From a virus (Duplodnaviria > Caudoviricetes), in IMG/VR virus record IMGVR_UViG_3300020171_000036, positions 1 to 53,183 of that record: a DNA stretch of 53,183 nt; one strand, written 5' to 3'. The translations under genes were made by a program, and so were the position numbers. Positions within the stretch are counted from its first letter, which is position 1, and each line of letters starts with the position of its first letter. Below are positions 19,812-53,000 of the stretch, piece after piece. The notes below the pieces were generated by a model. It did not search any database, was not told the origin of the DNA, and worked only from the letters and a program-made list of their open reading frames with translations.

Positions 19812-20068
19812 GATTATTATTTATTCTTATACTATTAATTTCTGTCCAAGCTTTTGCAGCCGACCTCCCCTTTTTTATGGACCCCGTTCAACACGAACAC
19901 GAACAACAGCAATACGAAAAATCACGCCAGCAAGCGGTAGAAGAACAGGCCGCACGAGACCGCAAAGAAATGATAGAGAACCAGCGAGAGATTATAAGAC
20001 AACAACAGGAAGAATCCACACGCAGGGAAAACCAGAGAATCTGGGACTGGAATAATAATGGCAGGTAA
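19799..20068 (+). CDS. secreted protein with signal peptide
   Basis: MRLLFILILLISVQAFA signal followed by Q/E/R coiled coil. Confidence 0.55.
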   Translation: MACMRLLFILILLISVQAFAADLPFFMDPVQHEHEQQQYEKSRQQAVEEQAARDRKEMIENQREIIRQQQEESTRRENQRIWDWNNNGR

Positions 20069-20465
20069 AAAAACTAAAGTTGGAGGACAACCAGGGAACA
20101 AGAACAGGGAAATATACACACTTGAAGTGGCGTTCGACCTATTTGAGAAAGCTAAGGATATATTAGTTATTGATAAAAATATTATTACAGAGACAGAATT
20201 AATGGTTAAATGTAAATATGAGTTATCATTACCGATGTCATCTTATTTATATCTAAGAGACGAGAAATTCCCCATCGAATTAGAAGACTATAAAAAAGAA
20301 ATTGAGTCAATCCTTGAATCACGGGTTATGAGATGTAAGGAAATGTATCCAGGTATAGCTGCTATGACGTTAAAGAACAAGCATCGTTGGAAAGACCAGC
20401 AGGACATTAACCAAAACATTAAACTACCACCAGGGTTAAAGGTGTCTTTTGGTGCAGAAGAATAA
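20058..20465 (+). CDS. terS: terminase small subunit
   Basis: GGQPGNKN N-terminus, LKNKHRWKDQQ C-terminus, directly upstream of TerL. Confidence 0.75.
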   Translation: MAGKKTKVGGQPGNKNREIYTLEVAFDLFEKAKDILVIDKNIITETELMVKCKYELSLPMSSYLYLRDEKFPIELEDYKKEIESILESRVMRCKEMYPGIAAMTLKNKHRWKDQQDINQNIKLPPGLKVSFGAEE

Positions 20466-22623
20466 AGAAATTGAAATCAAACTACCACCTAAATTTAAAG
20501 GACTGTTTAAGCCGGCACGATATAAGATATATTACGGCGGAAGAGGTGGTGCTAAGTCTTTCTCGTTTGCTACAGCCCTAATAATAAGGGCATATTCACA
20601 GCCGTTACGGATACTATGTACAAGAGAATTTCAGTCATCAATAGCAGACTCAGTGCATCGGCTCTTAGCCGACAGAATACACGATTTAAACCTTGACCAG
20701 TGGTTTGACGTAACAAACACAGCCATTACAAGTAAAGCGGGGTCGTTGTTTATTTTCAAGGGGTTACGCCACTCAATACAGGAGATAAAGTCCACAGAAG
20801 GTATTGATATTGTATGGGTAGAAGAGGCTCAGGCCATATCTCAAAATTCATGGAAGATACTTATTCCGACCATCAGAAAAGAAGAATCGCAGATATGGAT
20901 ATCCTTCAACCCAGAGGAAGAAACAGACCCGACATATCAAAGATTTGTAATAAATACACCACCTAACAGTATTATAAAAAAGGTTGGGTGGGAAGATAAT
21001 CCGTATTTTCCAAAGGTGCTTAATGACGAGCGCCTGTATATGTTACAAGTTGATCCCGAAGCATACGAGCATGTATGGGGCGGGGATTGCAGGCAGATAG
21101 GAGATGCGGTAATATTTAAAAACAGGGTATCGGTAGAAACATTTAATGAGCCATCAGATGACACACAACTATATTATGGAGCAGATTGGGGATTTTCTAA
21201 TGATCCCACAGTATTGATTAGGTGTTGGGTGAAAGATAAGTGCCTTTATATAGACAGGGAAGCGTATGGAATGGGGGTGGAAATAGACGACCTTCCAGAG
21301 CTTTTTGATAGTATTCCAGGGGCGAGAAAATGGAATATAAAAGCCGACAACTCACGACCGGAGACCATCAGCCACATGCAGCGACAGGGGTTTAATATCA
21401 GCGCAGCCCCCAAGTGGCAAGGTTCAATAGAAGACGGTATTACAGTTATGAAAGGATTTCAACGCATTATAGTCCATGAGAGATGCCAGCACACAGCCAA
21501 AGAGTTTAGACTATACAGTTATAAAACCGATAGATTAACGGAAGAAGTGCTACCAATTATAATAGACAAACACAATCATTGCTTTATAGCTGGAACAAAA
21601 ATATCTACGTCAAGGGGCAATGTCCCGATTGAAGATGTAAGAGTAGGTGATTTTGTTTTAACAAGGTTTGGATTTAGAAAGGTTTTATTTTCTGGTGTTA
21701 CCGGAGTTAATAAAAAGGTTGTCAGCGTTAATATCGGAGAAAAAACAATTGTTTGCACCCCAGGCCATAAAATTTTTATTAATAAAAAAGGCTTTACATT
21801 TGCCAATGCTTTAAGATATAATGACTCAACTATAACATTAAAGGAGAATGAGTCATGGTTGAAACAACAGAGTATAAGGGAAAAACTTACAGAAGATATC
21901 CAAGCAGCAACAACAAGGCAGATCGTACTTATTTTACAAGATCGTATGCAAATCATAAAACACCTATTAAATTACATAGGCAGATATGGGAAGACCATTA
22001 CGGATCAATACCTATCGGACACCATATCCATCATAAAGATGGCGATTCTTCCAACAATGATATTACAAACCTCGCCTGCCTTTCCCCATCAGAACACGCA
22101 AAAAAGCATGAATGGGATGATGCCCGGAAAAGATTTCAACGAGAACATTTGGACAAGATCAGACATCTTACAAAGGCATGGCATTCAAGCCCAGAAGGAA
22201 AAATTAAACATAGAGAAATTGGTGCAATTGCATATAAAAAATTTATTCCAATACCCAAAATATGCAAACATTGTGAACAGTTATTCCTACCTAAGAAAAT
22301 TGGGAACGCTGATCTTTTCTGCTCTAATAAATGCAAATCAGCTTGGCGCAGAGCCTCTGGGGTTGACAACATCACAAGAGAATGCGAGGTATGCGGAAAG
22401 CAATTTAAAACAAACAAATATAGTAAAACCAAAAGTTGTTCTAGAACGTGTGCAAAGCGTGTGTGTGGTCGGGACAGCAAAGCAAGTTTATGACCTTACA
22501 ATAGAAGGAGATCATGAGTTTTTTGCCAATAGCATTCTTGTACACAATTGTTTAGACAGTATTCGCTATGGTATTAGTAGTTTAATACGAGTTGGGTTTT
22601 TTGCGGGAGCTGACTTGGCATGA
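20449..22623 (+). CDS. terL: terminase large subunit (PBSX/Terminase_3-like) containing an intein
   Basis: YGGRGGAKS Walker A, WVEEA Walker B, SFNP, GADWGFSNDP, DKHNH|CLDSIRY. Confidence 0.95.
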   Translation: MVQKNKEIEIKLPPKFKGLFKPARYKIYYGGRGGAKSFSFATALIIRAYSQPLRILCTREFQSSIADSVHRLLADRIHDLNLDQWFDVTNTAITSKAGSLFIFKGLRHSIQEIKSTEGIDIVWVEEAQAISQNSWKILIPTIRKEESQIWISFNPEEETDPTYQRFVINTPPNSIIKKVGWEDNPYFPKVLNDERLYMLQVDPEAYEHVWGGDCRQIGDAVIFKNRVSVETFNEPSDDTQLYYGADWGFSNDPTVLIRCWVKDKCLYIDREAYGMGVEIDDLPELFDSIPGARKWNIKADNSRPETISHMQRQGFNISAAPKWQGSIEDGITVMKGFQRIIVHERCQHTAKEFRLYSYKTDRLTEEVLPIIIDKHNHCFIAGTKISTSRGNVPIEDVRVGDFVLTRFGFRKVLFSGVTGVNKKVVSVNIGEKTIVCTPGHKIFINKKGFTFANALRYNDSTITLKENESWLKQQSIREKLTEDIQAATTRQIVLILQDRMQIIKHLLNYIGRYGKTITDQYLSDTISIIKMAILPTMILQTSPAFPHQNTQKSMNGMMPGKDFNENIWTRSDILQRHGIQAQKEKLNIEKLVQLHIKNLFQYPKYANIVNSYSYLRKLGTLIFSALINANQLGAEPLGLTTSQENARYAESNLKQTNIVKPKVVLERVQSVCVVGTAKQVYDLTIEGDHEFFANSILVHNCLDSIRYGISSLIRVGFFAGADLA
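21580..22548 (+). mobile_element. intein in TerL (323 aa)
   Basis: Starts CFIAGTKI, block B CTPGH, block F VYDLTIEGDHEFFAN, ends VHN followed by Cys. Confidence 0.93.
21855..22493 (+). CDS. HNH homing endonuclease nested out of frame inside the TerL intein
   Basis: LHRQIW...HIHHKDGDSSNNDITNL..L...EH...H plus CxxC zinc ribbons; AAGGAG RBS at 21841-46. Confidence 0.88.
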   Translation: MVETTEYKGKTYRRYPSSNNKADRTYFTRSYANHKTPIKLHRQIWEDHYGSIPIGHHIHHKDGDSSNNDITNLACLSPSEHAKKHEWDDARKRFQREHLDKIRHLTKAWHSSPEGKIKHREIGAIAYKKFIPIPKICKHCEQLFLPKKIGNADLFCSNKCKSAWRRASGVDNITRECEVCGKQFKTNKYSKTKSCSRTCAKRVCGRDSKASL

Positions 22624-22660
22624 GGTGGTTTGATGACGTTTAGAGAGTGCTTATATCATT

Positions 22661-22837
22661 ATGCAGGATAAAAGATGGCAAAACGGTAAAGGTTACCATA
22701 AATATTATTACACAGTAAAAGACATAGCACAAATTACAGGAAGGGCGATTGGAACGATTCGGAACGACATGAGCAAGGGTAAATTAGAAATGAGCGATTT
22801 GTTAAGTGTGATAAAGTACATTAAAAAGTTTACATAA
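22661..22837 (+). CDS. small HTH DNA-binding protein (58 aa, not in ORF track)
   Basis: YTVKDIAQITGRAIGTIRNDMSKGKL, excisionase/MerR-like HTH. Confidence 0.55.
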   Translation: MQDKRWQNGKGYHKYYYTVKDIAQITGRAIGTIRNDMSKGKLEMSDLLSVIKYIKKFT

Positions 22838-24332: not shown

Positions 24333-24429
24333 GCAACCGACAAGACTCCTATCAACGACAATGGTTGAATTTTATGGGTCAGGGTAGCGATGACAGGAAA
24401 TTCACATTAATAGGATAGGAGAATAAATT

Positions 24430-26319
24430 ATGGGACAATTATTAGCAGAAATATTAAATGACATGTCAGATGGACGTGAACGTAGAGCAATATATACTAT
24501 GTTCACTAAACTTTTAAACAACGATGCTACATCCACACATGCAGCTATTGTGTGTGGTGCATCGGCAACCCCAATATCGGTAGCTGGGGCATTCACGACC
24601 GGCCTTGAAATATCGGCAGACGGCACCACCGGAATCTCGATCACGTCTGGATTTTCCGGTGTAAACATGCTTTCGCTGGCTGGAACTGGAAGCACTTCAG
24701 GTATTTTGATTTCTGGAGCTTGTGCTATTCCGCTGAACATTACTGGAGCTTTCACCACCGGCTTGACCATAGCCGCTGATGGAACGACAGCAATTTCGGT
24801 AACAAGCGCATTTAGTGGTACAACCGGACTATTATTTGCAGGAACAGCCACCAACGGGATTTCACTTACTGGGGCATGTGCGACAGCAGCGATCAGTATA
24901 TCTGGTGCGGAAGCTATTGGTCTGAGTATTCTAACCTCAACTCCTACCGATGGTATCAACATTGCCGCAGCTTGTGCTAATGCAATCGCTATTGGTGGAG
25001 CAAACACCACTGCAGGTATCAACATTACGGGAGCGGAAGCAGTCGGCATACAGATTGCCACTTCAACCCCTGTGGACGGTATTCTGATATCAGCCGCTTG
25101 CGCTGATGGTATTCAGTTGTCAGGTGCTAATACTGCAAACGCAATCAATATTTCAGGAGCTTCCACAGCGGTTGGGATAGGTATAAGCGGAACTTGTGGA
25201 ACTTATGGAGTAAGCATATCTGGTGCATGTACGACAGCCGCTATTGGTATCACGGGCGCTGAAGCAGTCGGGCTTCTAATTGCCACATCTACACCGACCA
25301 GCGGTATTTCAATCACCGCAGCTTGCGCCGATGGCGTAGCGATTTCAGGAGCAAATACTACAGCAGGTATTAACATAAGTGGAGCGGAAGCCGTTGGATT
25401 AAGCATTAACACCTCAACGCCTGTGGATGGTATCCTGGTTTCTGCGGCATGTGCAGATGGTATTCAATTATCTGGAGCAAATACAGCCAATGCCATTAAT
25501 ATTTCAGGGGCAAGCACGCTTAACGCTATAACTATAAGCGGGACATCTGGTGATACAGGTATTGAAATCAGTGGCACAGCGGCAAACTTTGCCATAGACA
25601 TTTCAGGTGCTCAGACGGCAGTAGGACTATCTGTATCTGGTGCATGTGCAACTGGTATTTCTATTTCTGGGGCTTGTTCAACGGCTGTAATGCAAATGGG
25701 TTCTACTGGCACACCTCTTGTTAATGATACAGCAATAGCTGGGTTTGTTTTAGGTTACTTTGATAGCGGTGTAACAAGTGGATGGCCATGCGGCGCTTTT
25801 TTCAACACAAATGTCACAGCAGCAGGCGGAAGTTTTACAGCCCTTCAGGGCGATGCTGTTTTAACCGCTGCGAAAGCTACCGTAACAGGTGTTGAGAACT
25901 GGATGCAGGTTAATACGGGCGGACGTGTAACTGGAGCTTGTCGTTCACTTCAAGGCACTATCGACTTTAGTAATGAAGATAAAGGTAGTGGGGGCGTTTA
26001 CTCGGGTGCTTGTCTTAATATTAAAGGCGAGGGAGCTGCATGTGATATTGGAACTACTCAGAGAGTTTCTTGCCTTGAGCTTAAAACAGAAGGCACTTGG
26101 AGCGCTGCCGCTGGAGAGGATTTTGATACAAAAGCAGCAGGCTATGCTATTTACTTTAACGGATTTACAGCGGCGGCAGGGGTTACAAACATTCTGTCCA
26201 GCACAAGGCTTGCGGAATTGCCAGCAAGTACAATCGGTATTAGGGTAGGTGTTGGCGCAGACGGAGCATCTGGAGCAGCTTATTATATTCCATTAGTATT
26301 AGCATCTGAATGGAACTAA
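24430..26319 (+). CDS. repetitive G/A/S/T/I-rich virion fibre or beta-solenoid protein
   Basis: Many ~11-aa 'xIxISGA' repeats in ~33-aa super-repeats; AGGAG RBS. Confidence 0.75.
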   Translation: MGQLLAEILNDMSDGRERRAIYTMFTKLLNNDATSTHAAIVCGASATPISVAGAFTTGLEISADGTTGISITSGFSGVNMLSLAGTGSTSGILISGACAIPLNITGAFTTGLTIAADGTTAISVTSAFSGTTGLLFAGTATNGISLTGACATAAISISGAEAIGLSILTSTPTDGINIAAACANAIAIGGANTTAGINITGAEAVGIQIATSTPVDGILISAACADGIQLSGANTANAINISGASTAVGIGISGTCGTYGVSISGACTTAAIGITGAEAVGLLIATSTPTSGISITAACADGVAISGANTTAGINISGAEAVGLSINTSTPVDGILVSAACADGIQLSGANTANAINISGASTLNAITISGTSGDTGIEISGTAANFAIDISGAQTAVGLSVSGACATGISISGACSTAVMQMGSTGTPLVNDTAIAGFVLGYFDSGVTSGWPCGAFFNTNVTAAGGSFTALQGDAVLTAAKATVTGVENWMQVNTGGRVTGACRSLQGTIDFSNEDKGSGGVYSGACLNIKGEGAACDIGTTQRVSCLELKTEGTWSAAAGEDFDTKAAGYAIYFNGFTAAAGVTNILSSTRLAELPASTIGIRVGVGADGASGAAYYIPLVLASEWN

Positions 26320-26996: not shown

Positions 26997-29900
26997 ATGG
27001 CATCATCTAATCTATCACACGAAGAAATAGAGCGTCTTGTAGAAATTGAAATTAAAGATGCCGAAGAATATTCCGGTATTCGTTCAGGTAAGCGTGAAAC
27101 AAACTGGGATCGGTATTATGGCCGTAAGCTCGGTAACGAAGTTAAAGGCCGGTCTCAGTTTATGACACGAGAGGTGCTTGATACTATTGAATGGATGATG
27201 CCGTATTTTATTCGCACCTTTGCTTCAGGCGACCCCAAGATTGAGATAGAAATTAAAGGTCAGGAGTCCTGGGTGGGTAAGGCAATGATGGACAGGATAC
27301 AACTTGACCTCGGAGAAGGCACGCCAAACCTGTTTCTTATATTTTATCAATGGTTTAAAGACTCTCTGGTATCAGACACAGCTTTTACAAAACTGGCATG
27401 GGATTTAGACCAGGAAAATATATCTGTAGAATTTGACGAACTTCCGGCAGCACGATTACAACAGCTTGCCACAGACCCCGATGTAACTATTATTAATGCT
27501 GGTGAGATGGATATCGGTCAGGGGGGGATTTCGTTTAAGAATATCTCAGTCAAGATAAAGAAAACAATCAAGGATTCAATCTATGCTGAGAATGTACCTC
27601 ACTGGGAATTTCTTGCAAGCTCAAAGTCAAGAAGCGTTAATGACGAACACGGAAAAGGACATAAGACCGAAGTAACAGTAGATTATATAAAAAGAATCAA
27701 CAGGGCACGAACCGAAGGAAAGAAACCATATTTTAAAAACATAGACAGGCTTGAGTCGGGAGAAAGTAAATCAGAAATATCCGAAGGTGAAAAAACAAGT
27801 TACATGGGTGAAGATTCTCCTCTCCAGACAGACACGGAAAAGGGAGCTAAATCAGCGGTAACATTTATTGAATGGCATACAAGACTCGATGTAAACGATG
27901 ATGGTTACCTTGAGAATGTTATCTGTTTTATGGGGAATGGACACCTTTTAAGATGGGAAGAAAACAAAGATGAATTTATTCCGTTCTCTGCGCTTTCTCC
28001 TATAATTGACTGCTATAAGTTTTTTGGCATTTCGTATGCAGACCTTTTAGTAGAAATACAAAATCTCAAAACTATGCTATTCAGAAGAATACTTGATAAC
28101 TTTGATTTTCAGAACTCCGGCAGGTGGTTAAGAGACCCCAACAGTATGATTGACACCTATGCTCTTTTAAATAACATTCCCGGAAGTGTAATTACTGGAA
28201 AAGTAGATGGACTTAAAGACATCACTCCAGCGCCGTTCAACCCTGGGAATTTGACTATATTAGAATACGTTGATACGATAAAAGAGAACAGAACTGGAAT
28301 AACTCGTTATAATCAAGGGACAAGTGCTGATACACTTAATAAGCGTATAGATATTAACACTCCAGTCCCTATGGCAGATGGGACGTGGAGTTTTTTAAGC
28401 GAGATACAAGATAGAGATATGATTCTTGGCGGCGATGGCACTCCGACTATGGTTGTAAAAGCTCACGAAATAGCGCTGAGCGACAATGCCTATAAGGTTG
28501 AATTTAATGGCAGTGGGGCTACTAAAATAGATGAAATAGTTGCCGATGCCGAACATTTATGGGGTGTTTATATAGGAAGGCATTGGAAATATAAAATTTT
28601 AAACACCAAGCAAATTTTTAAGTTATTAAAAAGTGGTGAGAGAGTAAGTGTTCCTAAACCTAAACATATTGCCTCTGGACAAGAAAACGATTTGCCTATT
28701 AATCCTTATGTTTTTGGCGTTTGGTTGGGAGATGGTAGTAAGTGGGATACTGTAATAACTACGGCGGATGAAGGAGTTATACGTCGAGTAAAAGAACGGT
28801 GTGAGGAAGAAGGATGGCAAGTAAAAAAAGATGCCCATCCGCAAGGCATTTCTTACCGTATTACCAGTTGTTTTGAAAAGAAGAGAACTAAGGACAATCG
28901 TTTCTTTGCTCAACAAGATAGTCTTTTCCATAGATTATCTTCTCTGGGTGTATTCCGTAGAACAGGGGGGGATCCTCATATTCCTGCTGTTTATTTTAGA
29001 TCGTCTTATGGGCAAAGGCTGGAATTATTAAGAGGTTTAATGGACTCAGATGGTTTTTTTAGTCAGGGGATTTGTTTTTTTGGTAATTCTAATTATCGGT
29101 TAATTGAAGATATATCAAAACTTATTAGAAGTTTAAGCGGAGTTCCTAATATTAGAAAGGTTAGGACAAAAGGTAAAAAGTGGGTTAATGGGAAGAATTG
29201 TAACACGAAAGATTTTTGGTTAGTTGGATTTAATTTAAATGATTGTCCTTTTGCCCTTGAACGAAAGGCTGAGGTTTGGAGGCCTACACGCAAAAAAGCT
29301 TACCGCATAGTTGCTGTAAAAAAGGTTGAACCAAGATTAATGCGATGCCTGACAGTTGATAACCCTGATGGGTTATGGTTGATTGGGGAGCATTATATTG
29401 CCACGCATAATACCGCAAGAGGCATTATACAAATTCAGAATGCTGCCATGCAAAGGCTTGAATTAATTGGAAGAATATTCGCAGAAATAGGACTTAAAGA
29501 CTTTTATCGCAAGTGTGTTTTGTTATATCAAAAATATATGAGAAAACCATTTACTGCAAAGGTATTAGGGCAGGATAAAGAAATTATGCCAGAAATGATA
29601 CAGGGTAGGGTAATTACAAGGGTGAATATGGGTGTGGCTGCTTCAGTAGGTGCAGAAGAAGCCGGTAAAATAGAACACATGCTCGGAGTATTATTTAAGC
29701 TCAACGAATATTTCCCTGGACTTTTAACTCCTGAAAAGATACACAACCTTTCAAAGAGATACATCACTTCGCTTGGTTTTAAAAACGCAGACGACTTTAT
29801 AGAGGATGCTCAAAGTTATTTAGAGAAAGCCGAACAGATGCAACAGCAAAATGCTGAGATGCAAAAGATGATGGTCGAGTTACAGCAGAAATTCAAAGAG

Positions 29901-30137
29901 ATGGAGCTTCAGATTAAAGGACAGAGTGTTCAGGTTCAGGCTCAAAAAGCGCAGGCGGATGCGACCATATCTCAGGCTGAATTAAAACAGGAAAGCATTT
30001 TAGCAGGACAGGAACTTAAGCAAGATAAAGAAATAGCAATGGCAGAGATAGCGCAGAAAGAACGAGACTCAAAAAGAGACCATGCGCTTGGATTATTAAA
30101 GATGGCAACCGAAGGACAGCGACCGACAGGAGTATAA
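26997..30137 (+). CDS. portal protein (P22-like) containing an intein
   Basis: YYG..LGNEVKGRSQ, PF..L.P.....FFG.S..D, TGITRYNQG..ADTLNK|TARG, Q-rich C-terminal coil. Confidence 0.9.
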   Translation: MASSNLSHEEIERLVEIEIKDAEEYSGIRSGKRETNWDRYYGRKLGNEVKGRSQFMTREVLDTIEWMMPYFIRTFASGDPKIEIEIKGQESWVGKAMMDRIQLDLGEGTPNLFLIFYQWFKDSLVSDTAFTKLAWDLDQENISVEFDELPAARLQQLATDPDVTIINAGEMDIGQGGISFKNISVKIKKTIKDSIYAENVPHWEFLASSKSRSVNDEHGKGHKTEVTVDYIKRINRARTEGKKPYFKNIDRLESGESKSEISEGEKTSYMGEDSPLQTDTEKGAKSAVTFIEWHTRLDVNDDGYLENVICFMGNGHLLRWEENKDEFIPFSALSPIIDCYKFFGISYADLLVEIQNLKTMLFRRILDNFDFQNSGRWLRDPNSMIDTYALLNNIPGSVITGKVDGLKDITPAPFNPGNLTILEYVDTIKENRTGITRYNQGTSADTLNKRIDINTPVPMADGTWSFLSEIQDRDMILGGDGTPTMVVKAHEIALSDNAYKVEFNGSGATKIDEIVADAEHLWGVYIGRHWKYKILNTKQIFKLLKSGERVSVPKPKHIASGQENDLPINPYVFGVWLGDGSKWDTVITTADEGVIRRVKERCEEEGWQVKKDAHPQGISYRITSCFEKKRTKDNRFFAQQDSLFHRLSSLGVFRRTGGDPHIPAVYFRSSYGQRLELLRGLMDSDGFFSQGICFFGNSNYRLIEDISKLIRSLSGVPNIRKVRTKGKKWVNGKNCNTKDFWLVGFNLNDCPFALERKAEVWRPTRKKAYRIVAVKKVEPRLMRCLTVDNPDGLWLIGEHYIATHNTARGIIQIQNAAMQRLELIGRIFAEIGLKDFYRKCVLLYQKYMRKPFTAKVLGQDKEIMPEMIQGRVITRVNMGVAASVGAEEAGKIEHMLGVLFKLNEYFPGLLTPEKIHNLSKRYITSLGFKNADDFIEDAQSYLEKAEQMQQQNAEMQKMMVELQQKFKEMELQIKGQSVQVQAQKAQADATISQAELKQESILAGQELKQDKEIAMAEIAQKERDSKRDHALGLLKMATEGQRPTGV
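28344..29411 (+). mobile_element. class-3-type intein with LAGLIDADG endonuclease in portal (356 aa)
   Basis: Starts RIDINTPVP; ADAEHLW; PYVFGVWLGDG and LLRGLMDSDG; MRCLTVD; IATHN followed by Thr. Confidence 0.9.
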
Positions 30138-42711: not shown

Positions 42712-44088
42712 ATGCAAAGTCTGCTTAATACCATGATTGACCCTTCACTGCTTACATCAAATTATCCAAATCGTGAAGCATTGTTATCTCAAGCTATGTC
42801 TCGACAACCCCAGAGAACACAGATACCTTCACCTGTTACAACACCACCACCACAACAGCCAATGATGCAGTCAACAGCTTCTGATACAGGCTTGCAGAGT
42901 TTAATAAAAAATCAGGAAACAAAAGATGCTCAAGTAAAAATTCAGGCAGCCCTTAAAGAAATAGTTGATACAAGGGAAAAGTCAGGCAAGAAATTCCTAA
43001 CCCCCACACAAAGACTTGGGATATTTACAAAACATGGCCTTCCGAGTTTTGCCGCTAAGATGATAAACGATGCCATAACTGACCAGCAAAAAGAGTTAGA
43101 ACCAAAATATCATACAGTAACTCGACCTACGCCTGAGGGCGGAAAAATAACCGGCCTTGAAACAGAAGAAGAATTAAGAAAAAGCCCCATTGAGGAAAAA
43201 CCTGACTGGAAAACAAGAGAACTTGGCAAGCTACAGAGAAGGGAAACAACGGAAAAAGATTACACAGATACACAATTAGCCCTGCTTGGACTTAAAAAAG
43301 ATATTCCTAAAACAATGAAGTTTGAATACTACGATAAGGCAGGTAAAAAGAAAGTAAGGCTAATTTCAGAAGATAGAATGAACGAGTTTGCTTTACAAGT
43401 AGAACAGGCTGGTGGTTCTTTGGAAAAGCCAGAAAAAGAATTTGCGACCCTTAATAAAGACAGGCTTGAATGGACTGAAAAGGTAATGAAAGACTGGCGT
43501 GAACATAATCTTGATTTTACACCCGAACAGGAAAAAACACAATATGACACATTTAATGCTCAATACACAGGAGCTATTAAAGGATGGACACCACTTAGAA
43601 ATAAAAAAACGGGCGAGTTTATCTTTAGAAATCAAGAAGACAGGCTTGTAGATGAGAGAGGAAATGAAATAAAACAAGAGATTACTACACCTGCTTCTCA
43701 ACCAGGAGCCGAAGTAACCCCAAAACCTAAAGCAGTTTCAAAGCCCAGGGCAGTTTCAGAGCCTAAAGAAGTTCCTACTCTTACGAAAGAAGAATTGTCT
43801 AATATCTTAAACAAACCAAAAACATATCAAACTGGATTTTATAAACCAGAGAGTTTTGCTCCAGGAGGAACACCTTCATTTAAAGAACAGCTTCAATCTT
43901 GGGCAGGTAAAACTACTCCGAAAGGATTTTCTAAGTTTGGAGAAGGCAGTCTTGAAACTGCTATTCGACAGGCTGGATTAGGGAAAAATTTAGCGCAAGT
44001 AAAAGATATGGCTGATAATCTTAGAAGAAAATATCCTGAGTTTACAGATGATAACCTTATTAAACTAATACAGAAAACAAATGCCTGA
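42712..44088 (+). CDS. putative ejection/internal virion protein
   Basis: 458 aa, Q/P-rich N-terminus, position before giant gene. Confidence 0.6.
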   Translation: MQSLLNTMIDPSLLTSNYPNREALLSQAMSRQPQRTQIPSPVTTPPPQQPMMQSTASDTGLQSLIKNQETKDAQVKIQAALKEIVDTREKSGKKFLTPTQRLGIFTKHGLPSFAAKMINDAITDQQKELEPKYHTVTRPTPEGGKITGLETEEELRKSPIEEKPDWKTRELGKLQRRETTEKDYTDTQLALLGLKKDIPKTMKFEYYDKAGKKKVRLISEDRMNEFALQVEQAGGSLEKPEKEFATLNKDRLEWTEKVMKDWREHNLDFTPEQEKTQYDTFNAQYTGAIKGWTPLRNKKTGEFIFRNQEDRLVDERGNEIKQEITTPASQPGAEVTPKPKAVSKPRAVSEPKEVPTLTKEELSNILNKPKTYQTGFYKPESFAPGGTPSFKEQLQSWAGKTTPKGFSKFGEGSLETAIRQAGLGKNLAQVKDMADNLRRKYPEFTDDNLIKLIQKTNA

Positions 44089-47000
44089 GCTATTAAAATA
44101 TAGCCCTGATGAATGGGAAGAAGTTCCGTTAGGTGTATTAAGCGTACCTACCGGATTACCTGTTGGATTTGACCCGAACGAATGGGAAGAATTACCAATG
44201 GGTGCATCTATTCAACCACCTGCTGAAAAAGAAGAACCTGGTATGCTTGGAACTATCGGTCGTGGGTTAACGCATGGCATAATAGGGCTGGGCGAATCTA
44301 TTGGAGCAGGAACGCAATGGCTTGGAGAACGAATAGGAAGCGAAACTGTTGCAAAAGCAGGTGAAATAGCAAGTAATTATTATGAGAAGGTAGCAGAGCC
44401 TTTTGGCCCGCCAGAATCAATCGCAGGGAAAAACGTAATCGACGACCCAGGTCTTTTAGCGGATGCTACCTACTGGTTATACAATGTCCCCGAAATGCTT
44501 CCAGCCTTCGGAGCCGCAATAGCATCTTCTCTTTTTATGCCAGAAATAACTGTAGCTAAAAACGCCCCGAAAATAATATCGTCTTTGGCAAAATTAAGTA
44601 AATATTTTCCAGCCTTTGTAACGGGTGGTGGCCTTGAAGCAGCGCAAACATATAAGCAAACCTTAAAATCTGGAGCATCTGAGGAATCAGCAGCAAGGTC
44701 TGCCGAATTAATGTTTTTAGGAGCAGGTGTTCTTAATGCGATTGGTACAGGAAAAATACTTGAAGCTGCAGGAGCAGGCTTTAAGGGTCGGGTATTAAAA
44801 ACACTTGGCGCTGGTGTATGGGAAGGAATAACAGAAGGGTTAGAAGAACCCACAGAAGTTTTCTCAAAGTATATAGGTAAATATTTAGCTGGCGAAAAAC
44901 TGCCGAATGACCTTAAAGCTCAACTTCTTGAATCATTAAAGTCTGCTGCAACAGTAGCCCCAATAGCAGCCGTAACTGGCTTTGGCGGTAGCACTTTAGG
45001 TGGAACAAGGGTAGGCAAGCCAACCATAGACGAAGTAGATACTTTTAAAAAGGCAGTTGACTCTGGAGAATTTGAAAAAGGCATAACTGGTGGCGACATA
45101 ACTCCAGAAATAGTAGAAGACATAGCCACCAATATTGAAAAAACAGACGCTGAACTTGCCGATAAGGTAAGGAGCTTTTTAACAAAACCCGAAACTCCAG
45201 AAGGTTACGAAGAAATTGCGCCAATAGAAAGTGTGTCTCCAGAATTTCAAGAAATGCGACGTGCTAAAAAAGAAGAAGCAGACAAATCATTTGAAGAACT
45301 GCAAAGAAGAATCAATGTTTTAAACCTTAAAAAAGGTCGAGCACTTACCGATGAAGAACTTTTACAGGAAAGAGTTGCCGTATTAGCAGAAAAAGAACCA
45401 TCAAGAATCGAACAGGCCGTTGATGCTTTTGAAGAACTGCCTATGACAGAAGGCATGAAACGTGAAGTATTAATGCGTAAATTCCAGCCTTCACCTAAAG
45501 AAGTTTCTGCCGGTAAAGAACAAATCCTTGCTAAAGTCCAAGAAGTCAAAGACCAGAAGCTACAAGCCAGAACCATAACCGAAGGCATATTTGGAACAAA
45601 AGAAGGACAGGCATTTAAGAATAAAGGTTCAGCTTCTCTGAATAAAGTTCGCATGGAAAAAGACCATGGTGTTGAATTTGAGCCGGTTGAGGTTGAAGGC
45701 GGCTGGGGATTACAGAGAAAAGAAGTTGCCCCTGAGAAAGCGGAAGCGGTGAAAGAACCTAATCTTAATCAGCCAATATCTGCGAATAAAGGAAATATTC
45801 GTGCATGGTTTAAAGAGCCAAAAAATTGGGAGAATAAAGAACGATTAACATATAAAGAAGTTGTTGAACAAATCGCAAAAGATAAAAGCATAGAAATTAG
45901 GAAAACAGAAAAAGCTATTGATCCGTCAAGGCCACTTGGAGATATTGAAACAAAATATTCCATATATGTTGATGGTAAATATGCAAGGGATTTGCCTGAG
46001 TTTGCATATAAATATTATGAGAAGGTTGCAAAGCCACAGCCCACAGCAATCCCCGCAGAGGCGAAGCCAGAGGCCGCAGGATTGACGATTGAGGGTAAGG
46101 CAATACCAGAGGCTAAGGCTAAAGCATGGAAAATTGAATTTGATAAGACATATAAGAAATCTGAGTTCACAGAAGCTGAAAGGTGGGATGAATTTAAGGC
46201 ATTTTCCCAAAAAAGCTATGCAGATGATTTCCCAATTTCTGAACATTTTGAAATGTGGATGAAAAAGCCTGCCCCAAAAGAAGCAAAAGCCGAAGTTGCC
46301 GAAAAAACAGAAGGTAAAGTTGAAATCGAAACCACACCTGAAGGCAAAGAAGTAACAGTTGACCTTACCAAAAAAGAAGAGACTGCTTTAACCCCGAAAC
46401 AGCAGAAAGAATATTTGCTGGCTGAGATTGATAAGGCTATTGAGAGTGGATTAAAAGAAGCTGGTTTTGATAATACGATGGAGGTAGCAAAAGAGTTATT
46501 AAAAAAGAATATTAATGCTTTGCACGGTGTTGAAACTGTTTATATATTTGAAGTCCCCAATGACGGAACATTTGAGATAGTTGGTAGCCAATTATTTGAA
46601 TTTCAGAAACAAGTTACAAAAACATTTCCATCAACAATCATAAGTCCAAAGTTCAAACCATCTGCACCTCCAAAAAAAGCTGTTCCCGCAGCTAAATATA
46701 AAAATATAATAGACAGAGCGTATGGGGTAACTTCTGAAAAGTTAAAACCAGAGAATATAGATGGTTTATTTGAATCGGTAGCAGATACAGAAGTCAGGGG
46801 CACAGACAGGGCAATACATTTAAACGCTTTTCAAAACTGGTTACTTTCTCAAGATATAACTCAATCGGTTAGAGATAGAATTAGGTCTGTAGCTGGAAAA
46901 GATTATATAGAGGAAGCCCGTGTAAAGATAGAGACTCAAGATTTGGGTTACGCAATGTCTATGGTTGAACATAGAAGAGAAGCGGCATATGAGCTTCAAG

Positions 47001-50000
47001 ATTATGTAGATAGTTATAAAGCAAAAACACTTACTCTTGGGCAAATAAATAAAGAAACCGGAATTAAACGTTCAGGTCGTGAATTAGAAGTTGCCTTGAG
47101 TGATGCTAACCATGATTATACTGTGGCTTTAAAACATCTTAGGGAGCTTGAAGAAGCCAAAGAAGCCAAGCCTGCTGAAAAACCAACAGAAAGAATAAAT
47201 AAAGATACAATAATTTTAAAAGCTAAAGATACTCCTCGCAAAACATCAGACATTCCAGGCGTATATTTATCTGCCGATAAAAAATATGCAGGGGCTTACG
47301 CTAATGGTGAGGTTAAAGCAGCCCATCAGCGTGGCACATTAACACCAGAAAACGGTGCAATAATAGAAGTTAAAATTGATTCAGAAGAATCTATTGGCTT
47401 TGGTGATGTTATGCAAAGCCTTGAAAAAGACGACGTATATGACCTGCTAATTGAATCTGGAGTTGATGAAGAAACAGCCGAAAGATTATCTACAGAACCC
47501 AAAGATGCAGCGGATTATATTGACGTTGCTTCTGGAACTTCTTGGATGCAGAGAGGAATGGGCTATGATGAAGTCTTTAGAAATAATATTAAATGGGGCG
47601 ATATTGTTAAAATAGAAATCTTTAAAGATGGCAAGCTCGATAAAACCATAAAAGGTGGAGCTGAAATTGAGGCGGGCGAAATAACTTTTTATACTGGCAC
47701 TCCATACACAGAACATCTTGAAGTATTAGAAGCCAAGCCTGCCGAAAAACCAGCCGGAGAAAGGAAGCCTTATGAAGTTGCCGGAAGAGAAGCCGAAGCC
47801 AAAGAAGCCGTACCCAGTCCCGAAGGAAGGGTTGATTATACCAAAGGGCGAGCTGAAACAGAGTACCCAGAAATCGTATCCGATAGAGCAGGAAGTTATG
47901 AGTCAGGAGTAAAGACTATTGTTGCTCCACAAGATGCCGCTGCTTTTGCTCACCTTAATTTGTCAAAATATCCACAAGAACATTTAGCTACTCTAATACT
48001 TGATAAAGACCATAAGATAATATCAGTACATAGATACAGTATAGGTACGGCTGGCAGGTCGTTTGCTACACCTTCAATATTGGCAGGACATGCTTTAAAT
48101 ACTCCGGATGCTGCAAGCATTATAATTGTGCATAATCATCCATCTGGCGATCCGTTTTTATCTAAGGCAGACGATATGGTATTCAGGGCATTAAAAAATA
48201 CCCTAAAGGGAACTAAGGTTAAAGCACACGACATGATCGCTGTGGGCGTCAATGAATATAGTTCCTATATGGAAGGTTCTCCTGCAAGGCAAACAATACC
48301 AGAAGTCAAAGCAAAATATGAAATCCCAATGGTTGAAAGGGTCTTTAAACAAAAAGGTAAAAATTTATACCGTCTTTCTTTTCCGCAAGAGGTAAAGGAT
48401 TTTGGAAAGAACAATCTTCCAGAAGGCGGCTTGATTCTTCTTAATAATGCTAATGATGCAGTCGGGACATTACCTATTTCAGATTATTCACGTCTAAGAG
48501 AAGGTATGTCGGAAACCATTCTAAAACAAGTAGATGCTACAAACGCTATAAGCATAATAGCCTATAATTCTAACATTGAAATTCCAGCACTCGACAAGAC
48601 AAACCTCAAGAAGTTTGCCAATGCAACAGGGCTAAAATTACTTGACGTTATTGATTCTAAGGGTTCTTGGCAAGAACAAGGATTGATGCCGGTTACTGAA
48701 GATGAGATTTTCTACTCGACCAAGCAACAAATATCCGACTCAGAAATAACCCTATCTCAAGTACGTAATCTATTCAAATCACCATCCGGTTTATCCAAAG
48801 ATGGCAACATCTGGGTAAGGCTTTCATCCGGTTACGGCTTCCAAGTCAAAAGTGTACAACACATAAGCGAAAACAAGCTGGCCTTTGAGACAGCACGTGG
48901 CCGGATGAGGCTTGACGGCGAAATGATAGCAGGTAAGTTTGAGGACGATACTATTGAGATAGTTCGAGGAATAGGCGATAAATGGACTCTATATCACGAA
49001 TCAGAGCACATGGTGGAAAAGGCAGGTCTTATTACGCCATTTGAAATTAACGTGCTTAAGCGTAAGATTAAAAGCCTTACTGAGCAAGGAAAGTTTAAGA
49101 CACAGAACGAAAAAGATATAGGCGGTCAGGAAGACCGGGCGTACTTTATTGAGACAGAGTTAAATAAGAGATCATCTTATGCCGGAACAGTACAGCGTAT
49201 CTTAAATAAGATTGCTGATTGGATTGACTCGCTGGTGAATTTGTTTACTGCTACTTCACGAGGGGTAACAAGAGCCTTCGAAAGTGGCAAAATCTTCCAG
49301 AGAAAAGCCGGCGCAGAAACTTCAGGCATTAATCAGTTCGCTCAGGATGTGAGTTTTTCTTTGAAGAAGGCTGTTGCTAATATTCGAGATAATCCTAAGT
49401 TCAATAGATGGTTTAAGAAGAGTCAGGTTGTGGATGAGTATGGTAATCCATTGCCGGTTTATCATGGAACGAAAGCTATAATTGACAGATTTAAGCATGA
49501 TGAAAAAAGGTTTGATGATAGATTAATATTCTTTACTAAAAGTGCAGATTTTGCAGAAGAATGGGCAAGGGGCAGACAGGCTAATAAACCACCCAGAAAT
49601 TATAGCTGGACTGAACAAGACCAAAAGAAATTAGATGATCATTGGAAAGATTTCCATAAGATTTCAGATGAATTATATAAAACAGATAAAGCTAAGTGGA
49701 CTGAAAAATATGACAAACTAAAAGCAACTGAACCAAGAAGAAAATATACCGAAGAAAGAGAAGCCGATGTTTCCATATATCCTGTATATATCTCAGCTCA
49801 AAATATATTTAATCCAGTTGAAGATTATAAAGCTATTGAACCATTGCTCAAAACCATGGAAGGGATGCAGGGTGTTATAGAAAAAGGACTTCATAAAGAA
49901 GGGAATTGGCTTATATATGAGAATAAAACCGTCATAGATTGGCTTGAATCAAAGGGTTATGACGGAGTTTATATAAAAGAATCAGCATTTACTGGAGCAC

Positions 50001-53000
50001 CACACGATACAATAGCGGTATGGAATCCCACCCAAATAAAATCCATATTCAACACAGAATTTGACCCAACTAACCCTGATATAAGATACGCAATGGCAGG
50101 CGAGAAAGCCATAGGCGCACCTACTGGCGCACTTGCTAAAGCTCAGGAAATGCTTGCTGAAGGTAAGAGCGAGAAAGAGGTTTGGAAGGAAACCGGATGG
50201 CTCAAGGGCGCTGAAGGAAAGTGGAAGTGGGAGATTGATGATAGTGGAGCAAAGTTAAAAGACTTAGGACTTGGTAAGCAGATACATAAACTGGGTGATG
50301 TCCTTGATCATAAAAAATTATATGATTCATATCCTCAATTAAAAGAAATTCGTATTCATTCAAACCTTGACCCTAAAGATACATGGGGAAGTGGTTCTTA
50401 TTTTCATGGCGAAGGATTAGAGGGGGAAATTCTTTCAAGAAACAGAATAATGCTTGATGGCAATCCTAATAAAGCAGAGGAATTTCTTTTTCACGAAATC
50501 GCACATGCCATTCAAAACATCTCAGGTTTTGCTAAGGGCGGAAGTCCTGAAATAGCCTCAGCAGATGCAGTCATGCCTTATGATAACACAATGCGAGATT
50601 TCCAAAAACAAATAGATGATCTTGCTTTTGATAAAGGATTAGATTGGGATTCTCCTGAAGTAAAAGATATTCGGGACAAAAGAGAGGAGTACACTAAAAC
50701 ATTTTTAATAAAAAAATATGGTGAAGATTTTGGCATGGAAATGTATCATAATCTTGCCGGTGAAATAGAAGCCAGAGACACAGCCGCCCGTGCTAAATTA
50801 ACCGCTGAAGAACGTAGAGAAACCATGCCTTACGAAGCGCAGGGCATACCTCGTGAAGACTGGATAGTGACTGATGGGAAGGGGACGAGTTTTAGTATTG
50901 AACTGAAGGAAGCGCCTAAATTCGCTACAAAAGAACTTAAAGCATACAACGAGCAACACGCAACACCATTAGTTGACGACCTAATAAATAGAACAAAAAC
51001 AGATAATCTTGATGCTGTAAAAAGCGACCCCGATGAAACAAAGTCGTTTATTCGAGATGTTAGAGAGTCGGTCGGTAAGGCTACTGGCAGGTTTAGTTCT
51101 GAGGTTATATCTATTCGTGATATGAAATGGTATCATGTAGCATTAGAAACGCCTTATGTATTGGCTAAGAAGTTTAAGAGCATGAATAGTGCTGTAAAAA
51201 CAGAAATCAAACGGCATGAAAGTCGTGCTAAAAAACTGTTTAAATACTATCATGGCGAACTCGATGTTCTCCAAAAACACATGCAAAAAAACCCAGAAGA
51301 TTTAAAGGCTTATGAAGATTTAATCTGGAAATGGGAAGACAAAAGAATGCCTGAATCAGAAGTACCTACAGACTGGTATTCTATTGAAGATGGCGATTTA
51401 AAAATCAATCCACGGCATTATGTTGAGGTTAGAAACTACCTAAAGAAACAAGGTGTTAAAGATGCTGTTGCTGATGGGTTTATAACTATAAGAAAGATAC
51501 TTGATAATGTATTGGTAGAAGCTGACTCGGTTATGAAGGGTTCTAATGTTGATGAAAGCGACTTGCAGGAATTTAGGAAAAGCATAGGCAAAACCCATAA
51601 CTATTTCTCACATACTCGTGATGGGGATGCGTATATCAGGATAAAGGATAAAAATACAGGAAAAACAGTTTACAGAGAACACTTCTACAAAATTAAAGAA
51701 CGTCTGTTGCCTTTGAACAAAATGGCAAAAGCAAGAACAATAAGCTGGCTTAAAGAACAACTTTCTTCTGGTGAATTAAAAGGCTCGATGTCTGATTATG
51801 ACATTTCACCGGCAAGAGAGGTTACTAAACTTCCAGATGAGATTTTCTTTCAGATTCCGGTAGAAGCATTAAGCCAGATTTCAATGGAAGCTGGAAAAGG
51901 ACTTGCTGCATCGAGGACTCATTATGAAGCATTACGGTTAATGAAAAAGGAAGGTCTTAGCGAAAAAGAAGCTCATGCAAAAGCGAACAAAATACTTACC
52001 GCTGATATGGAAAGACATCTTGCCAGAGCTATTGCCGATGTTTTAAAGACACGAGGTTGGGGTGCACATGCTATTGCGAGGCAAGGTACGCCAGGCTTTA
52101 AAACGACTGATACTTTTGATACATTATTCCAATATCTATCAGGTTACTCAGGGTTTATAACTAAAATTGAAGCTACAAAAGAACACAGCAAAACTCTGCA
52201 AGCAATGAATGCAAAGCAAACTCCGAATGAGTACAGATATACGTCAGACTATATCAGAGACATGCTTGCCAACACAGATAAAACAGACCAGATGGTTGAC
52301 AGGTTAAGGGGTATCTTTTTCGTTAAATATTTAGGTGGTGTGGTTAAATCAGGAATTGTCAATCTCACACAAAACGTTGTTATGGCGGGGCCTATATTGT
52401 CACAATACACAAAGGGGTCTCATTTTAAACTTGCCAAAGCAATGAGAGATGTCCGCAAGGCTGTTACCGGAAAGAACGCATGGATGGGGAAAGAAACACA
52501 GTATGGCCAACTGGCAGAGAACGAACAAAGAGCGTTGACTGAAATGGTTGAAACTGGAGCAGCACAGGACTTATTCCTTCGGGAATTAAAGGGTGAAATC
52601 CCTGGAACAGGCTGGGGCAAATACGTCAAAAAGGTTATAGACAAATCTGGTATTTTCATGCAAGTCGCTGAAAAGTTTAACCGAGCAAGCACAGGGTTGG
52701 CGGCATACAGAATAGCTTTTAATGAGGGCGTAACTTTCGAGGAAAAACAAACTAAAGGAGACCATAATTTATCAGTAGAATTTACTAAAAAGGCAATCTA
52801 TGATTCTCATTTCCTCTACGGCAAGTCTAATCTTCCGGCTGCGTTCAGGGGCGGGGACTTCCGTAAGGTCGCAAGGGCAACATATACATTCAGGTCATTC
52901 ACCCATAACTATCTTGATATAATGGCTGATTTAGTTGCTAATCAAGGCACGCAAGGGTTAAAGGTGGCAGGCAGAAGCCTAATAAACATAATGGCTCTTG

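Follow-up and report, generated by a model that had tools for sequence, protein, structure and literature searches.

We analyzed a stretch of phage DNA of 53,183 bases (the window), which is the complete IMG/VR virus record IMGVR_UViG_3300020171_000036 (CheckV completeness of 74) and in which the gene for the large terminase subunit (terL) contains an intein. Nested inside the intein, in another reading frame, lies a second gene that encodes an HNH endonuclease. The terL gene occupies positions 20449 to 22623 of the plus strand (as do all features below unless stated otherwise) and is one continuous open reading frame (ORF) of 724 amino acids. It is uncertain whether translation starts at the TTG at 20449 or at the GTG at 20452, as in a 723-amino-acid database copy of the protein (P0004). 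The N-extein (20449 to 21579) holds the ATPase and most of the RNaseH-like nuclease, and its Pfam matches to Terminase_3 (2e-41) and Terminase_3C (2.5e-12) identify the product as a Terminase_3 family protein with both activities' domains. The C-extein (CLDSIRYGISSLIRVGFFAGADLA plus the stop codon; 22549 to 22623) was delimited by alignment to the TerL of Nitratiruptor phage NrS-1. This closest TerL (398 amino acids; 57% identical over the N-extein) has no intein and reads uninterrupted at the same site (DKNNHCIDAIRY), which makes the intein borders exact and shows that the +1 Cys of the C-extein is a native TerL residue. Contigs from two groundwater sequencing runs of two separate studies (runs X1 and X2) matched the window with 0 differences and no indels; one X1 contig (record 5) spans positions 21552 to 22700, and X2 spans the region in pieces.

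The intein (21580 to 22548; 323 codons, 969 nucleotides [nt]) lies between ...IIDKHNH and CLDSIRY... of the TerL nuclease motif. It has the sequence features of a class-1 intein, namely, Cys at position 1 (21580; block A), the TxxH motif of block B (T60-P-G-H63), VYDL at residues 303 to 306, and a terminal HN followed by Cys, and its removal restores the nuclease motif. The Pfam matches to Hint_2 (33.1 bits; cutoff, 28.4) and Intein_splicing (50.3 bits; cutoff, 35.8) are confined to the two ends of the intein, with Hint_2 covering residues 1 to 43. The N-terminal splicing (HINT) region extends from 21580 to 21846 (approximately residues 1 to 89, with the block B Thr at 21757 and His at 21766). 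The C-terminal splicing region with blocks F and G (22432 to 22548) ends in VYDLTIEGDHEFFANSILVHN, directly before the +1 Cys. Across 82 aligned inteins, C1 and H63 were invariant and T60 was at least 90% conserved. An initial annotation, made from the sequence alone, had described a complete intein that splits the TerL motif DKHNH/CLDSIRY, and the motifs, the Pfam matches, and the NrS-1 alignment all bear this out. Protein splicing of the intein is strongly implied, because the plaque-forming phages Highwayman, TJE1, and phiCDHM19 carry the same layout in their terL. Rfam gave 0 matches in the window at the gathering threshold, and there was no sign of a group I or group II intron. GC content is a little lower in the intein (0.32 to 0.39) than in the exteins (0.40 to 0.45).

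The nested HNH ORF (21855 to 22493) encodes 212 amino acids and ends in TGA. It lies in the -1 frame relative to terL (offset of +2) and matches both HNH_3 (PF13392; 62.3 bits; cutoff, 24.8; E = 3.4e-17) and phrog_15471, "HNH endonuclease" (1e-32). Its assignment to the HNH_3 family is shared by all 83 of 83 aligned homologues, none of which (0/83) matched Pfam Endonuclease_7 at an E value of ≤0.01. The HNH_3 catalytic core (21969 to 22100) comprises residues 39 to 82. In the alignment of 83 sequences, H41, H59, H60, and H81 are invariant, and D62, N67, N68, N72, and H85 are at least 90% conserved. Downstream of the core are two Cys4 zinc-ribbon-like modules (22263 to 22451; C137/C140/C156/C160 and C177/C180/C195/C199). 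The eight Cys residues are invariant or at least 90% conserved, and all are present in the window's ORF; a minority of the homologues have weak treble-clef or zinc-ribbon matches in Pfam. These modules presumably bind DNA. When the profile of the family was compared with solved structures, the sole match was to the homing endonuclease I-HmuI (1U3E; E = 3.6e-4), over the HNH core and the helix region that follows it. Phage records searched by blastn with the DNA of the intein yielded no match. The stop codon of the HNH ORF (22491 to 22493) falls within the Tyr-Asp codons of the block F VYDL, and an overlap of the HNH stop with YD or YN recurs in 34 of 94 nested loci.

In the intein frame, the same bases are read as a stop-free linker of approximately 191 codons (21856 to 22428) in which we saw no amino acid constraint. 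A Pfam scan of the intein-frame center found no nuclease family in the window and no Pfam family in any of 82 members. Searching both frames with hidden Markov models, a check proposed with the initial annotation, thus recovered HNH_3 in the shifted frame and no nuclease family in the center of the intein frame, where no endonuclease motif had been seen in the first place. That both frames stay open across 639 nt had also been remarked. This is correct and is hardly a matter of chance: synonymous-codon shuffles of the window's HNH ORF had on average 4.46 stops in the intein frame, and only 1 of 300 shuffles was stop free. The third frame over the HNH ORF has 22 stops.

The nested layout is not peculiar to the window. 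When phage records were searched by tblastn with the HNH protein, full-length relatives turned up beneath the annotated terL of Acinetobacter phage Highwayman, Tetrasphaera phage TJE1, and Clostridium phage phiCDHM19, in each case at the window's frame offset. Among isolated or named phages, the layout is present in these three and in LS06-2018-MD07. Scans with the HNH alignment added relatives from IMG/VR (the best 80 of 533 confirmed) and from contigs of a one-genome-per-species collection (79 confirmed). In total, 166 loci had an HNH match; 144 of these had at least 150 aligned residues, and the 22 below this length were set aside. The HNH gene was nested in a long ORF at 112 of the 144 loci, all of which had been chosen by their likeness to nested queries. 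Without exception, terL at these loci is read in the HNH frame +1, with 0 stops over the match compared to 2 to 41 in the remaining frame. The intein begins with Cys and ends with Asn at all 112, the +1 residue being Cys in 100, Ser in 8, and Thr in 4, and its median length is 322 residues. An intact HNH ORF is present at 111 of the 112 loci; the exception (L041) has a premature stop. Clustering by HNH identity groups the 112 loci into 104 clusters at 90% and 47 at 50%. Those in named genomes (36 loci) span 14 phyla and include 5 archaeal assignments, with the caution that the labels of metagenome-assembled genomes may be unreliable.

We found no nested locus in which the HNH gene shares the terL frame, and among longer proteins, 0 of 152 candidates carried this HNH in frame (weak evidence). 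To look at abundance in protein databases, we ran a profile of the intein-frame linker, without the splicing blocks, against 1.84 billion representative proteins. It matched 3,616 proteins at an E value of ≤1e-3, 2,175 at ≤1e-10, and 452 at ≤1e-30. Scans of 10 top matches revealed HINT domains in 10/10, recognizable terminase domains in 7/10, and an in-frame HNH in 0/10. For 59 of 83 TerLs found in databases, the linker could be aligned from end to end.

Next, we compared the two frames with respect to selection. The pair, shuffle, and tree analyses exclude two loci with stops in the HNH frame (L125 and L140), and four others (L001 to L004) were left out of alignments A2 to A4. In 30 nonnested homologues, the +1 frame over the HNH gene contains 3 to 13 stops (mean, 6.7), close to the shuffle expectation of 6.3. 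Synonymous shuffles of the nested HNH genes themselves produce a mean of only 1.98 intein-frame stops, so these genes have also shifted toward sequences less prone to such stops. One way in which the nested genes differ is visible in their protein sequence: not one of 137 Met residues in nested HNHs is followed by Ile, Met, Thr, Asn, or Lys, compared to 22 of 89 in the nonnested proteins. Such dipeptides, which the nested HNHs avoid, would force a TGA in the terL frame.

The amino acid sequence of the linker itself behaves as if it were untranslated. At matched HNH identity, linkers of nested pairs were as similar to each other as the untranslated +1 frames of nonnested pairs (identities of 0.216 versus 0.212 and of 0.240 versus 0.231), and just one linker alignment column is invariant among 82 sequences. 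Substitutions counted by HNH codon position follow the order third, first, second in nested and nonnested sets alike. The ratio of nonsynonymous to synonymous substitution rates (dN/dS; NG86) in the HNH frame is 0.07 to 0.19 for the 7 closest nonidentical pairs, with a median of 0.18 for 14 unsaturated pairs. Over the same bases, the linker frame gives 1.06 to 4.85 (median, 1.14), and the HINT parts in the intein frame give 0.09 to 0.29 (median, 0.23) for the respective sets of 7 and 14 pairs. The HNH frame is under purifying selection as in a normal gene and the splicing blocks are those of a normal protein, while the linker of about 190 codons is just kept open. Purifying selection on the amino acids of both frames was not found, stop avoidance being all that is selected in the linker; true double constraint is confined to approximately 20 codons, where the poorly conserved tail of the HNH protein lies over the C-terminal splicing region. 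The dN/dS comparison suggested with the initial annotation thus shows constraint on the HNH frame and none on the linker frame. Of its proposal, the selfish element whose nonsense linker is kept open stands, on the strength of 112 stop-free loci and the dN/dS values. The idea that the nuclease was overprinted on the intein does not, as the existence of free-standing homologues indicates that the HNH frame is the ancestral one and that the linker is a read-through laid over the HNH gene.

The HNH ORF seems to have translation signals of its own. In the window, a Shine-Dalgarno (SD) sequence AAGGAG (21841 to 21846) is separated by an 8-nt spacer from the ATG at 21855, as the initial annotation had pointed out together with the zinc ribbons of the shifted-frame HNH, and a TGA (21849 to 21851) closes the HNH frame one codon upstream of the ATG. 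Among 99 nested loci with an aligned N terminus, the HNH start codon is ATG in 86, GTG in 8, TTG in 4, and missing in 1 (L062). An SD-like core of at least 4 nt, 3 to 13 nt upstream, accompanies 55 of 98 nested HNH starts, compared to 15% of the 4,621 positions taken as controls from those terL ORFs. Many homologues thus have a putative ribosome-binding site, and the HNH frame is intact in 111 of 112. At most nested loci, a stop codon also ends the HNH frame shortly before the start (by a few codons), and these features favor internal initiation over a frameshift fusion. From these features, we infer that the HNH protein is translated separately, from its own SD sequence and ATG. A sigma-70-like promoter match (TTTACA-18-TATAAT; 11 of 12 positions; 21793 to 21822) ends 33 nt upstream of the HNH ATG. 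The total of promoter-like matches in the region equals the shuffle expectation, and scores of at least 9 occur upstream of 34 of 98 HNH starts versus 5% of 1,684 control windows. We regard an internal promoter as a lead only, because the -10 box coincides with conserved intein codons (RYND/RYGD) and its conservation may reflect coding constraint. A hairpin that would sequester the HNH SD sequence was also considered and was rejected on the basis of the fold score of the window (z = -1.0) and the lack of consensus pairs in 10 relatives.

Evidence for mobility comes from empty sites and from the distribution of the element. One X1 contig joins position 21577 to 22547 and thereby skips exactly the 969-nt intein; its depth is 42.6, that of the intein form is 107, and 4 letters where the two ends meet are ambiguous. 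Downstream of 22607 this contig continues into unrelated sequence. Another X1 contig just upstream (21432 to 21580; depth of 46.5) differs from the window at 10 positions, 9 of which are third codon positions, and it thus appears that the X1 sample also contains a related strain whose site is empty. The intein is thus present in some terL genes and absent from others at precise borders, as seen in the one X1 contig that skips it and in NrS-1, and the apparent coexistence of an intein-less allele in the same sample would provide the situation in which a homing gene is maintained. The history of the element also departs from that of its host gene: in 30 of 252 nested pairs with HNHs at least 50% identical, the N-exteins are at most 25% identical. 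For example, one locus (L014) and the window's clade share 53 to 57% of HNH residues and 41 to 52% of those in the HINT parts, compared to 14 to 16% in the extein. These are identity comparisons rather than a formal tree test, and they indicate that the element has been transferred between unrelated TerL families.

The 32 nonnested loci, almost all of them linked to terL, present further states of the element. At approximately 17 to 19 of them terL is fractured: one ORF with the N-extein and the N-terminal intein part is followed by a free-standing HNH gene and then by an ORF with the C-terminal intein part (IntC) and the C-extein, which overlaps the 3' end of the HNH gene (L096, L102 to L105, L077, L081, L084, L088, L110 to L114, L117, L125, and L140; partial in L106 and L143). 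Whereas the window's terL is one ORF of 724 codons, the host gene in these relatives lies in two, and their inteins are naturally split, with the HNH gene between the halves. At 16 of 17 fractured loci the IntC ORF occupies the +1 frame, as in the nested form; the upstream frame relation varies. Of 13 fractured loci in named genomes, 11 are from Bacillota. We found no description of an HNH-type fractured terL in the literature texts covered. At about 10 loci the HNH gene is immediately downstream of an intact, intein-less terL (L025, L040, L072, L080, L082, L086, L045/46, and L132). The gene order in phages CL2, PAE1, and vB_EauM-23 is terS, terL, HNH, portal, and in phage BP10 the HNH gene is upstream of terS. 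Finally, two mini-inteins at the same site (P0025 and P0036) lack both the linker and the HNH and are 49 to 52% identical to the window over the splicing parts. In a FastTree phylogeny of 142 HNH segments, which is unrooted, has many weak branches, and does not give the direction of change, the four contexts interleave with at least 14 state changes (mean of 29 when shuffled). The starred branches force at least 5 changes for the nested state, and 12 of 17 split forms fall in one supported clade.

We therefore read the locus as a mobile terL intein whose HNH_3/zinc-ribbon gene is a separate ORF in the -1 frame between the splicing regions and not part of the intein polypeptide, and we give this reading a probability of roughly 0.8. 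It draws on the anatomy, the conserved nesting and offset, the selection in the two frames, the adaptation of the HNH genes, the polymorphism at the intein borders, and the transfer between TerL families. Ribosomes on terL would read through the HNH gene in the wrong frame and produce a linker of approximately 190 residues; because its sequence would be irrelevant, selection would merely remove stops from the linker frame. The two HINT halves, if splicing competent as predicted, would fold around this linker loop and splice, leaving a TerL with the native ...DKHNH-CLDSIRY... motif. The endonuclease would be made independently from its own SD sequence and ATG, on the terL mRNA or on a possible transcript from the internal promoter. 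Its level would probably be low, because terL ribosomes run over its start site. The predicted cleavage target is the intein-less terL of coinfecting relatives, and repair of the cut would copy the intein and the HNH gene as a single unit.

Several observations weigh against this reading or soften parts of it. A recognizable SD core is missing at 43 of the 98 nested HNH starts, conserved RNA structure around the HNH start was not found (z = -1.0 for the window fold, no consensus pairs in 10 relatives), and the window sequence occurs in none of the RNA runs listed. The intein-less joint is one contig with 26 nt on its short side. The proportion of nested loci (112/144) is not an unbiased frequency, given how the loci were selected. 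Naive NG86 estimates are biased on overlapping frames and the usable close pairs number only 7 to 14, although the contrast between the frames is nonetheless large. The linkers are also somewhat poorer in hydrophobic residues (ILVFMWC) than the untranslated frame of free homologues (0.291 versus 0.333; P = 0.0035, uncorrected for relatedness or GC content), and there may be weak constraint on linker composition.

Among other explanations, the nested HNH could be an accessory nuclease of the terminase, as for cos cleavage in HK97-like phages, and not, or not only, a homing enzyme. A partnership of HNH proteins and terminases has reportedly been described by Kala et al. in 2014. The almost constant terL linkage of the nonnested homologues would fit such a role, as would the copies directly downstream of an intact intein-less terL and the one upstream of terS in BP10, but free-standing homing genes beside their target gene show the same linkage. 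We consider an accessory role unlikely, since NrS-1, with the closest TerL, has neither the intein nor an HNH gene beside terL, the TerLs with mini-inteins lack the HNH, and so, by construction, does the intein-less X1 allele. In addition, the nearest solved relative, I-HmuI, is an intron homing enzyme, and the element crosses between unrelated TerL families. The HNH ORF might instead be a silent relic in the window's phage, with the intein fixed and immobile and selection acting on the terL frame only. The absence of the window sequence from the listed RNA runs agrees with this, as do the premature stop in L041 and the missing start codon in L062. The window's ORF is nevertheless uninterrupted, keeps every conserved His, Asp, and Asn of the catalytic core and the eight Cys residues, and has a strong SD sequence before its ATG; given also the dN/dS of 0.07 to 0.19 in the family and the coexisting intein-less allele, a relic is quite improbable.

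It is very improbable that the intein-frame center is a functional domain of a type not yet recognized, so that both frames encode useful proteins. Such a domain would account for the full-length alignment of the linker in 59 of 83 database TerLs, for the 3,616 proteins found by its profile, and for its slightly more polar composition, but alignability is already expected where the underlying DNA is shared and constrained in the HNH frame. Linkers are no more alike than the noncoding +1 frames of free homologues, and the dN/dS of 1.06 to 4.85, the single invariant column in 82 sequences, the lack of any Pfam match in 82 members, and the mini-inteins that do without a linker all point away from a domain. 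Production of the HNH as a fusion by programmed -1 ribosomal frameshifting from the terL frame would explain why the -1 relation is constant in 112 of 112 loci. It is hardly credible, however, with the HNH frame of the window closed by a TGA one codon short of the ATG and lacking a slippery heptamer there, with a stop a few codons upstream, a conserved start, and SD enrichment in most relatives, and with no conserved RNA structure. An assembly or sequencing artifact, in which two compensating indels hide an in-frame HNH intein, has a practically negligible probability. The initial annotation had named such indels as fatal to its proposal, and none occur in the contigs of the two groundwater runs, which match without differences. 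The same layout recurs in 112 independent loci and in finished phage genomes, and an in-frame HNH appeared in no nested locus and in 0/152 longer-protein candidates (again, weak evidence).

In the textbook view, an intein is a single polypeptide that includes its homing endonuclease, of the LAGLIDADG or HNH type, as an in-frame fusion. The window's element resembles these canonical inteins in that a class-1 splicing domain interrupts an essential gene where it encodes a conserved catalytic site, with an endonuclease gene at the equivalent insertion point and, presumably, the same homing cycle. It differs from them in that the endonuclease lies outside the intein polypeptide, and an in-frame member of this HNH family was found neither among the 152 candidates nor among the nested loci. 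Inteins that carry their HNH in frame are credited to Dalgaard et al. 1997 in the text of a recent preprint by Gosselin, Arsenault, and Gogarten (bioRxiv 10.1101/2025.01.02.630785). The in-frame arrangement, which the initial annotation had taken as the known state, is not the whole picture, as the text of that preprint describes actinophage inteins whose endonuclease is antisense (LAGLIDADG and VSR-like) or "in frame 3" (endonuclease VII-like). There, terL is among the host genes, the architectures are called extremely rare, and free-standing endonuclease genes are proposed to invade inteins. As in the frame 3 case of the preprint text, the window has an endonuclease ORF on the same strand but in another frame, between the splicing blocks of an intein whose own frame stays open, in a terL host, and with an intein-frame center that has no recognizable fold. 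The endonuclease of the preprint is of the IPR004211 endonuclease VII-like type, whereas that of the window is an HNH_3 protein with two zinc ribbons and does not belong to IPR004211. The survey described in the preprint covers PhagesDB actinophages, in contrast to the thousands of representatives of the family described here in bacterial and archaeal viruses. In the parts of its main text covered, we found no selection analysis, and "ribosom" and "start codon" occur 0 times each. The architecture has hence been known since this 2025 preprint, the one account of same-strand out-of-frame intein endonucleases that our literature searches turned up, and the HNH_3 terL form is a new and very widespread variant of it.

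Two other systems are comparable. The ShiLan domain (Arsenault et al. 2025; PMC11855218) is a hidden out-of-frame HNH in an insertion of a mycobacteriophage DNA methylase. Its HNH ORF likewise lies out of frame in an open host gene and its distribution is homing-like. Unlike the window's complete class-1 intein, which is predicted to remove the read-through, ShiLan has no splicing domains, and the read-through stays in the mature protein (PMC11855218). It also has a GTG start with no detectable ribosome-binding site, compared to the ATG with AAGGAG in the window. Dassa et al. 2009 (PMC2677866) described split inteins separated by free-standing GIY-YIG or Vsr-like genes and predicted fracturing by HNH genes. 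Those fractured genes share with the window an endonuclease gene at the insertion point of the intein, with its own translation signals and a 3' end overlapping the IntC coding sequence, and their state is shared exactly by the approximately 17 to 19 fractured relatives of the window's HNH. The window itself differs in that its terL is one ORF with a contiguous intein, and the nucleases of Dassa et al. are not HNH proteins (PMC2677866).

I-HmuI is an HNH homing endonuclease from a group I intron in a Bacillus phage, and the window's protein has the HNH core and the following helix region in common with it. I-HmuI is encoded in an intron and has other DNA-binding modules, unlike the two Cys4 zinc ribbons and the intein host seen here. 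Free-standing homing genes beside their target, and "collaborative homing" into introns, have reportedly been described by Bonocora and Shub in 2009 and by Zeng et al. in 2009. The HNH relatives directly downstream of an intact intein-less terL look like such free-standing genes, as would be expected of a terL-targeting nuclease. In contrast to collaborative homing into introns, the self-splicing partner is an intein and the gene is overlapped by a translated frame. A description of the HNH_3-in-terL-intein layout was not found in the openly accessible full texts searched, and among the papers found on TJE1, phiCDHM19, phiCD119, and Highwayman, none mentioned an intein alongside. With respect to the literature text examined, the scale and host range of the family, the selection analysis, the adaptation of the HNH genes, and the coexistence of nested, split, mini, adjacent, and empty states are new.

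More broadly, these loci may represent an ancient terL-homing family of bacterial and archaeal viruses, with more than 2,000 clusters at 50% identity, in which the HNH has never been found in frame. The nonsense linker would then be a stable, selected feature, the HNH sequence would have been reshaped by it (no M[IMTNK] and fewer NTA/NTG codons), and the read-through state would be an evolutionary hub. We put this forward tentatively, at a little short of an even chance. If it is true, one nonsense mutation in the dispensable linker would yield a natural split intein, that is, a fractured terL, and a deletion would yield a mini-intein, while the free-standing copies next to terL would be either a source or an offshoot of the nested form. 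The result would be a general and testable route by which inteins gain endonucleases and split inteins arise. The main value of the family lies in this natural series for the association of inteins with endonucleases and for the origin of split inteins: the empty, free-standing adjacent, nested, split, and mini states can be compared directly, which bears on the order of intein evolution. The nested loci also amount to a natural experiment in which more than 100 diverged sequences translate approximately 190 codons that are selected, at the amino acid level, only for the absence of stops. They are informative about the amount of arbitrary polypeptide that HINT domains tolerate at the endonuclease insertion point, which matters for intein engineering and split-intein design, and about the constraint that overlapping frames place on a functional gene.

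A further value is the correction of annotations. The nested HNH gene is usually missed by gene callers, and the read-through goes under the names "terminase large subunit" and "hypothetical protein" in databases. Another match of the window's intein is phrog_35162, "unknown function," and in phage phiCD119 (L172), ORF3 (1897 to 2595), a "hypothetical protein," is in the intein frame and consists of the linker and the C-terminal splicing part. Database entries like these two are probably read-through pieces of the nested-HNH intein element. Three database cases depart from the simple layout. One TerL (P0123; 1,095 amino acids) has two inteins, a canonical LAGLIDADG intein near the N terminus and one of the nested-HNH type in the nuclease domain. 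Another protein (P0097; 1,412 amino acids) has several HINT matches and no recognized terminase domain. In the finished chromosome of Allohahella sp. A8, two identical terL-intein-HNH loci (L127 and L128) lie approximately 52 kb apart, presumably in two related prophages.

The window's phage probably has a second intein, of the canonical in-frame LAGLIDADG kind. Its portal gene (26997 to 30137; 1,046 amino acids) matches SU10_portal (7e-108 on a 593-position profile) and contains an insertion of approximately 390 residues with an in-frame LAGLIDADG_3 match (24 bits; cutoff, 22.5), a weak Hom_end_hint match at its start, and the end ...YIATHN/T; the first residue of this putative intein is not an obvious Cys or Ser. 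Upstream, a 135-amino-acid ORF (20058 to 20465) overlaps the start of terL in the position of a small terminase subunit and has no Pfam match. Between terL and the portal gene, a 629-amino-acid ORF (24430 to 26319), also without a Pfam match, is rich in Ala/Gly/Thr/Ser repeats (motifs like ISGA..T..GI.I; local GC content of 0.48 to 0.51). On the opposite strand, a 219-amino-acid ORF (24402 to 25061, minus strand) is open across this repeat ORF, probably as a side effect of composition. A tRNA scan of the window found none. Toward the 3' end, a giant ORF (44081 to 53182) encodes at least 3,034 amino acids and runs off the end of the record.

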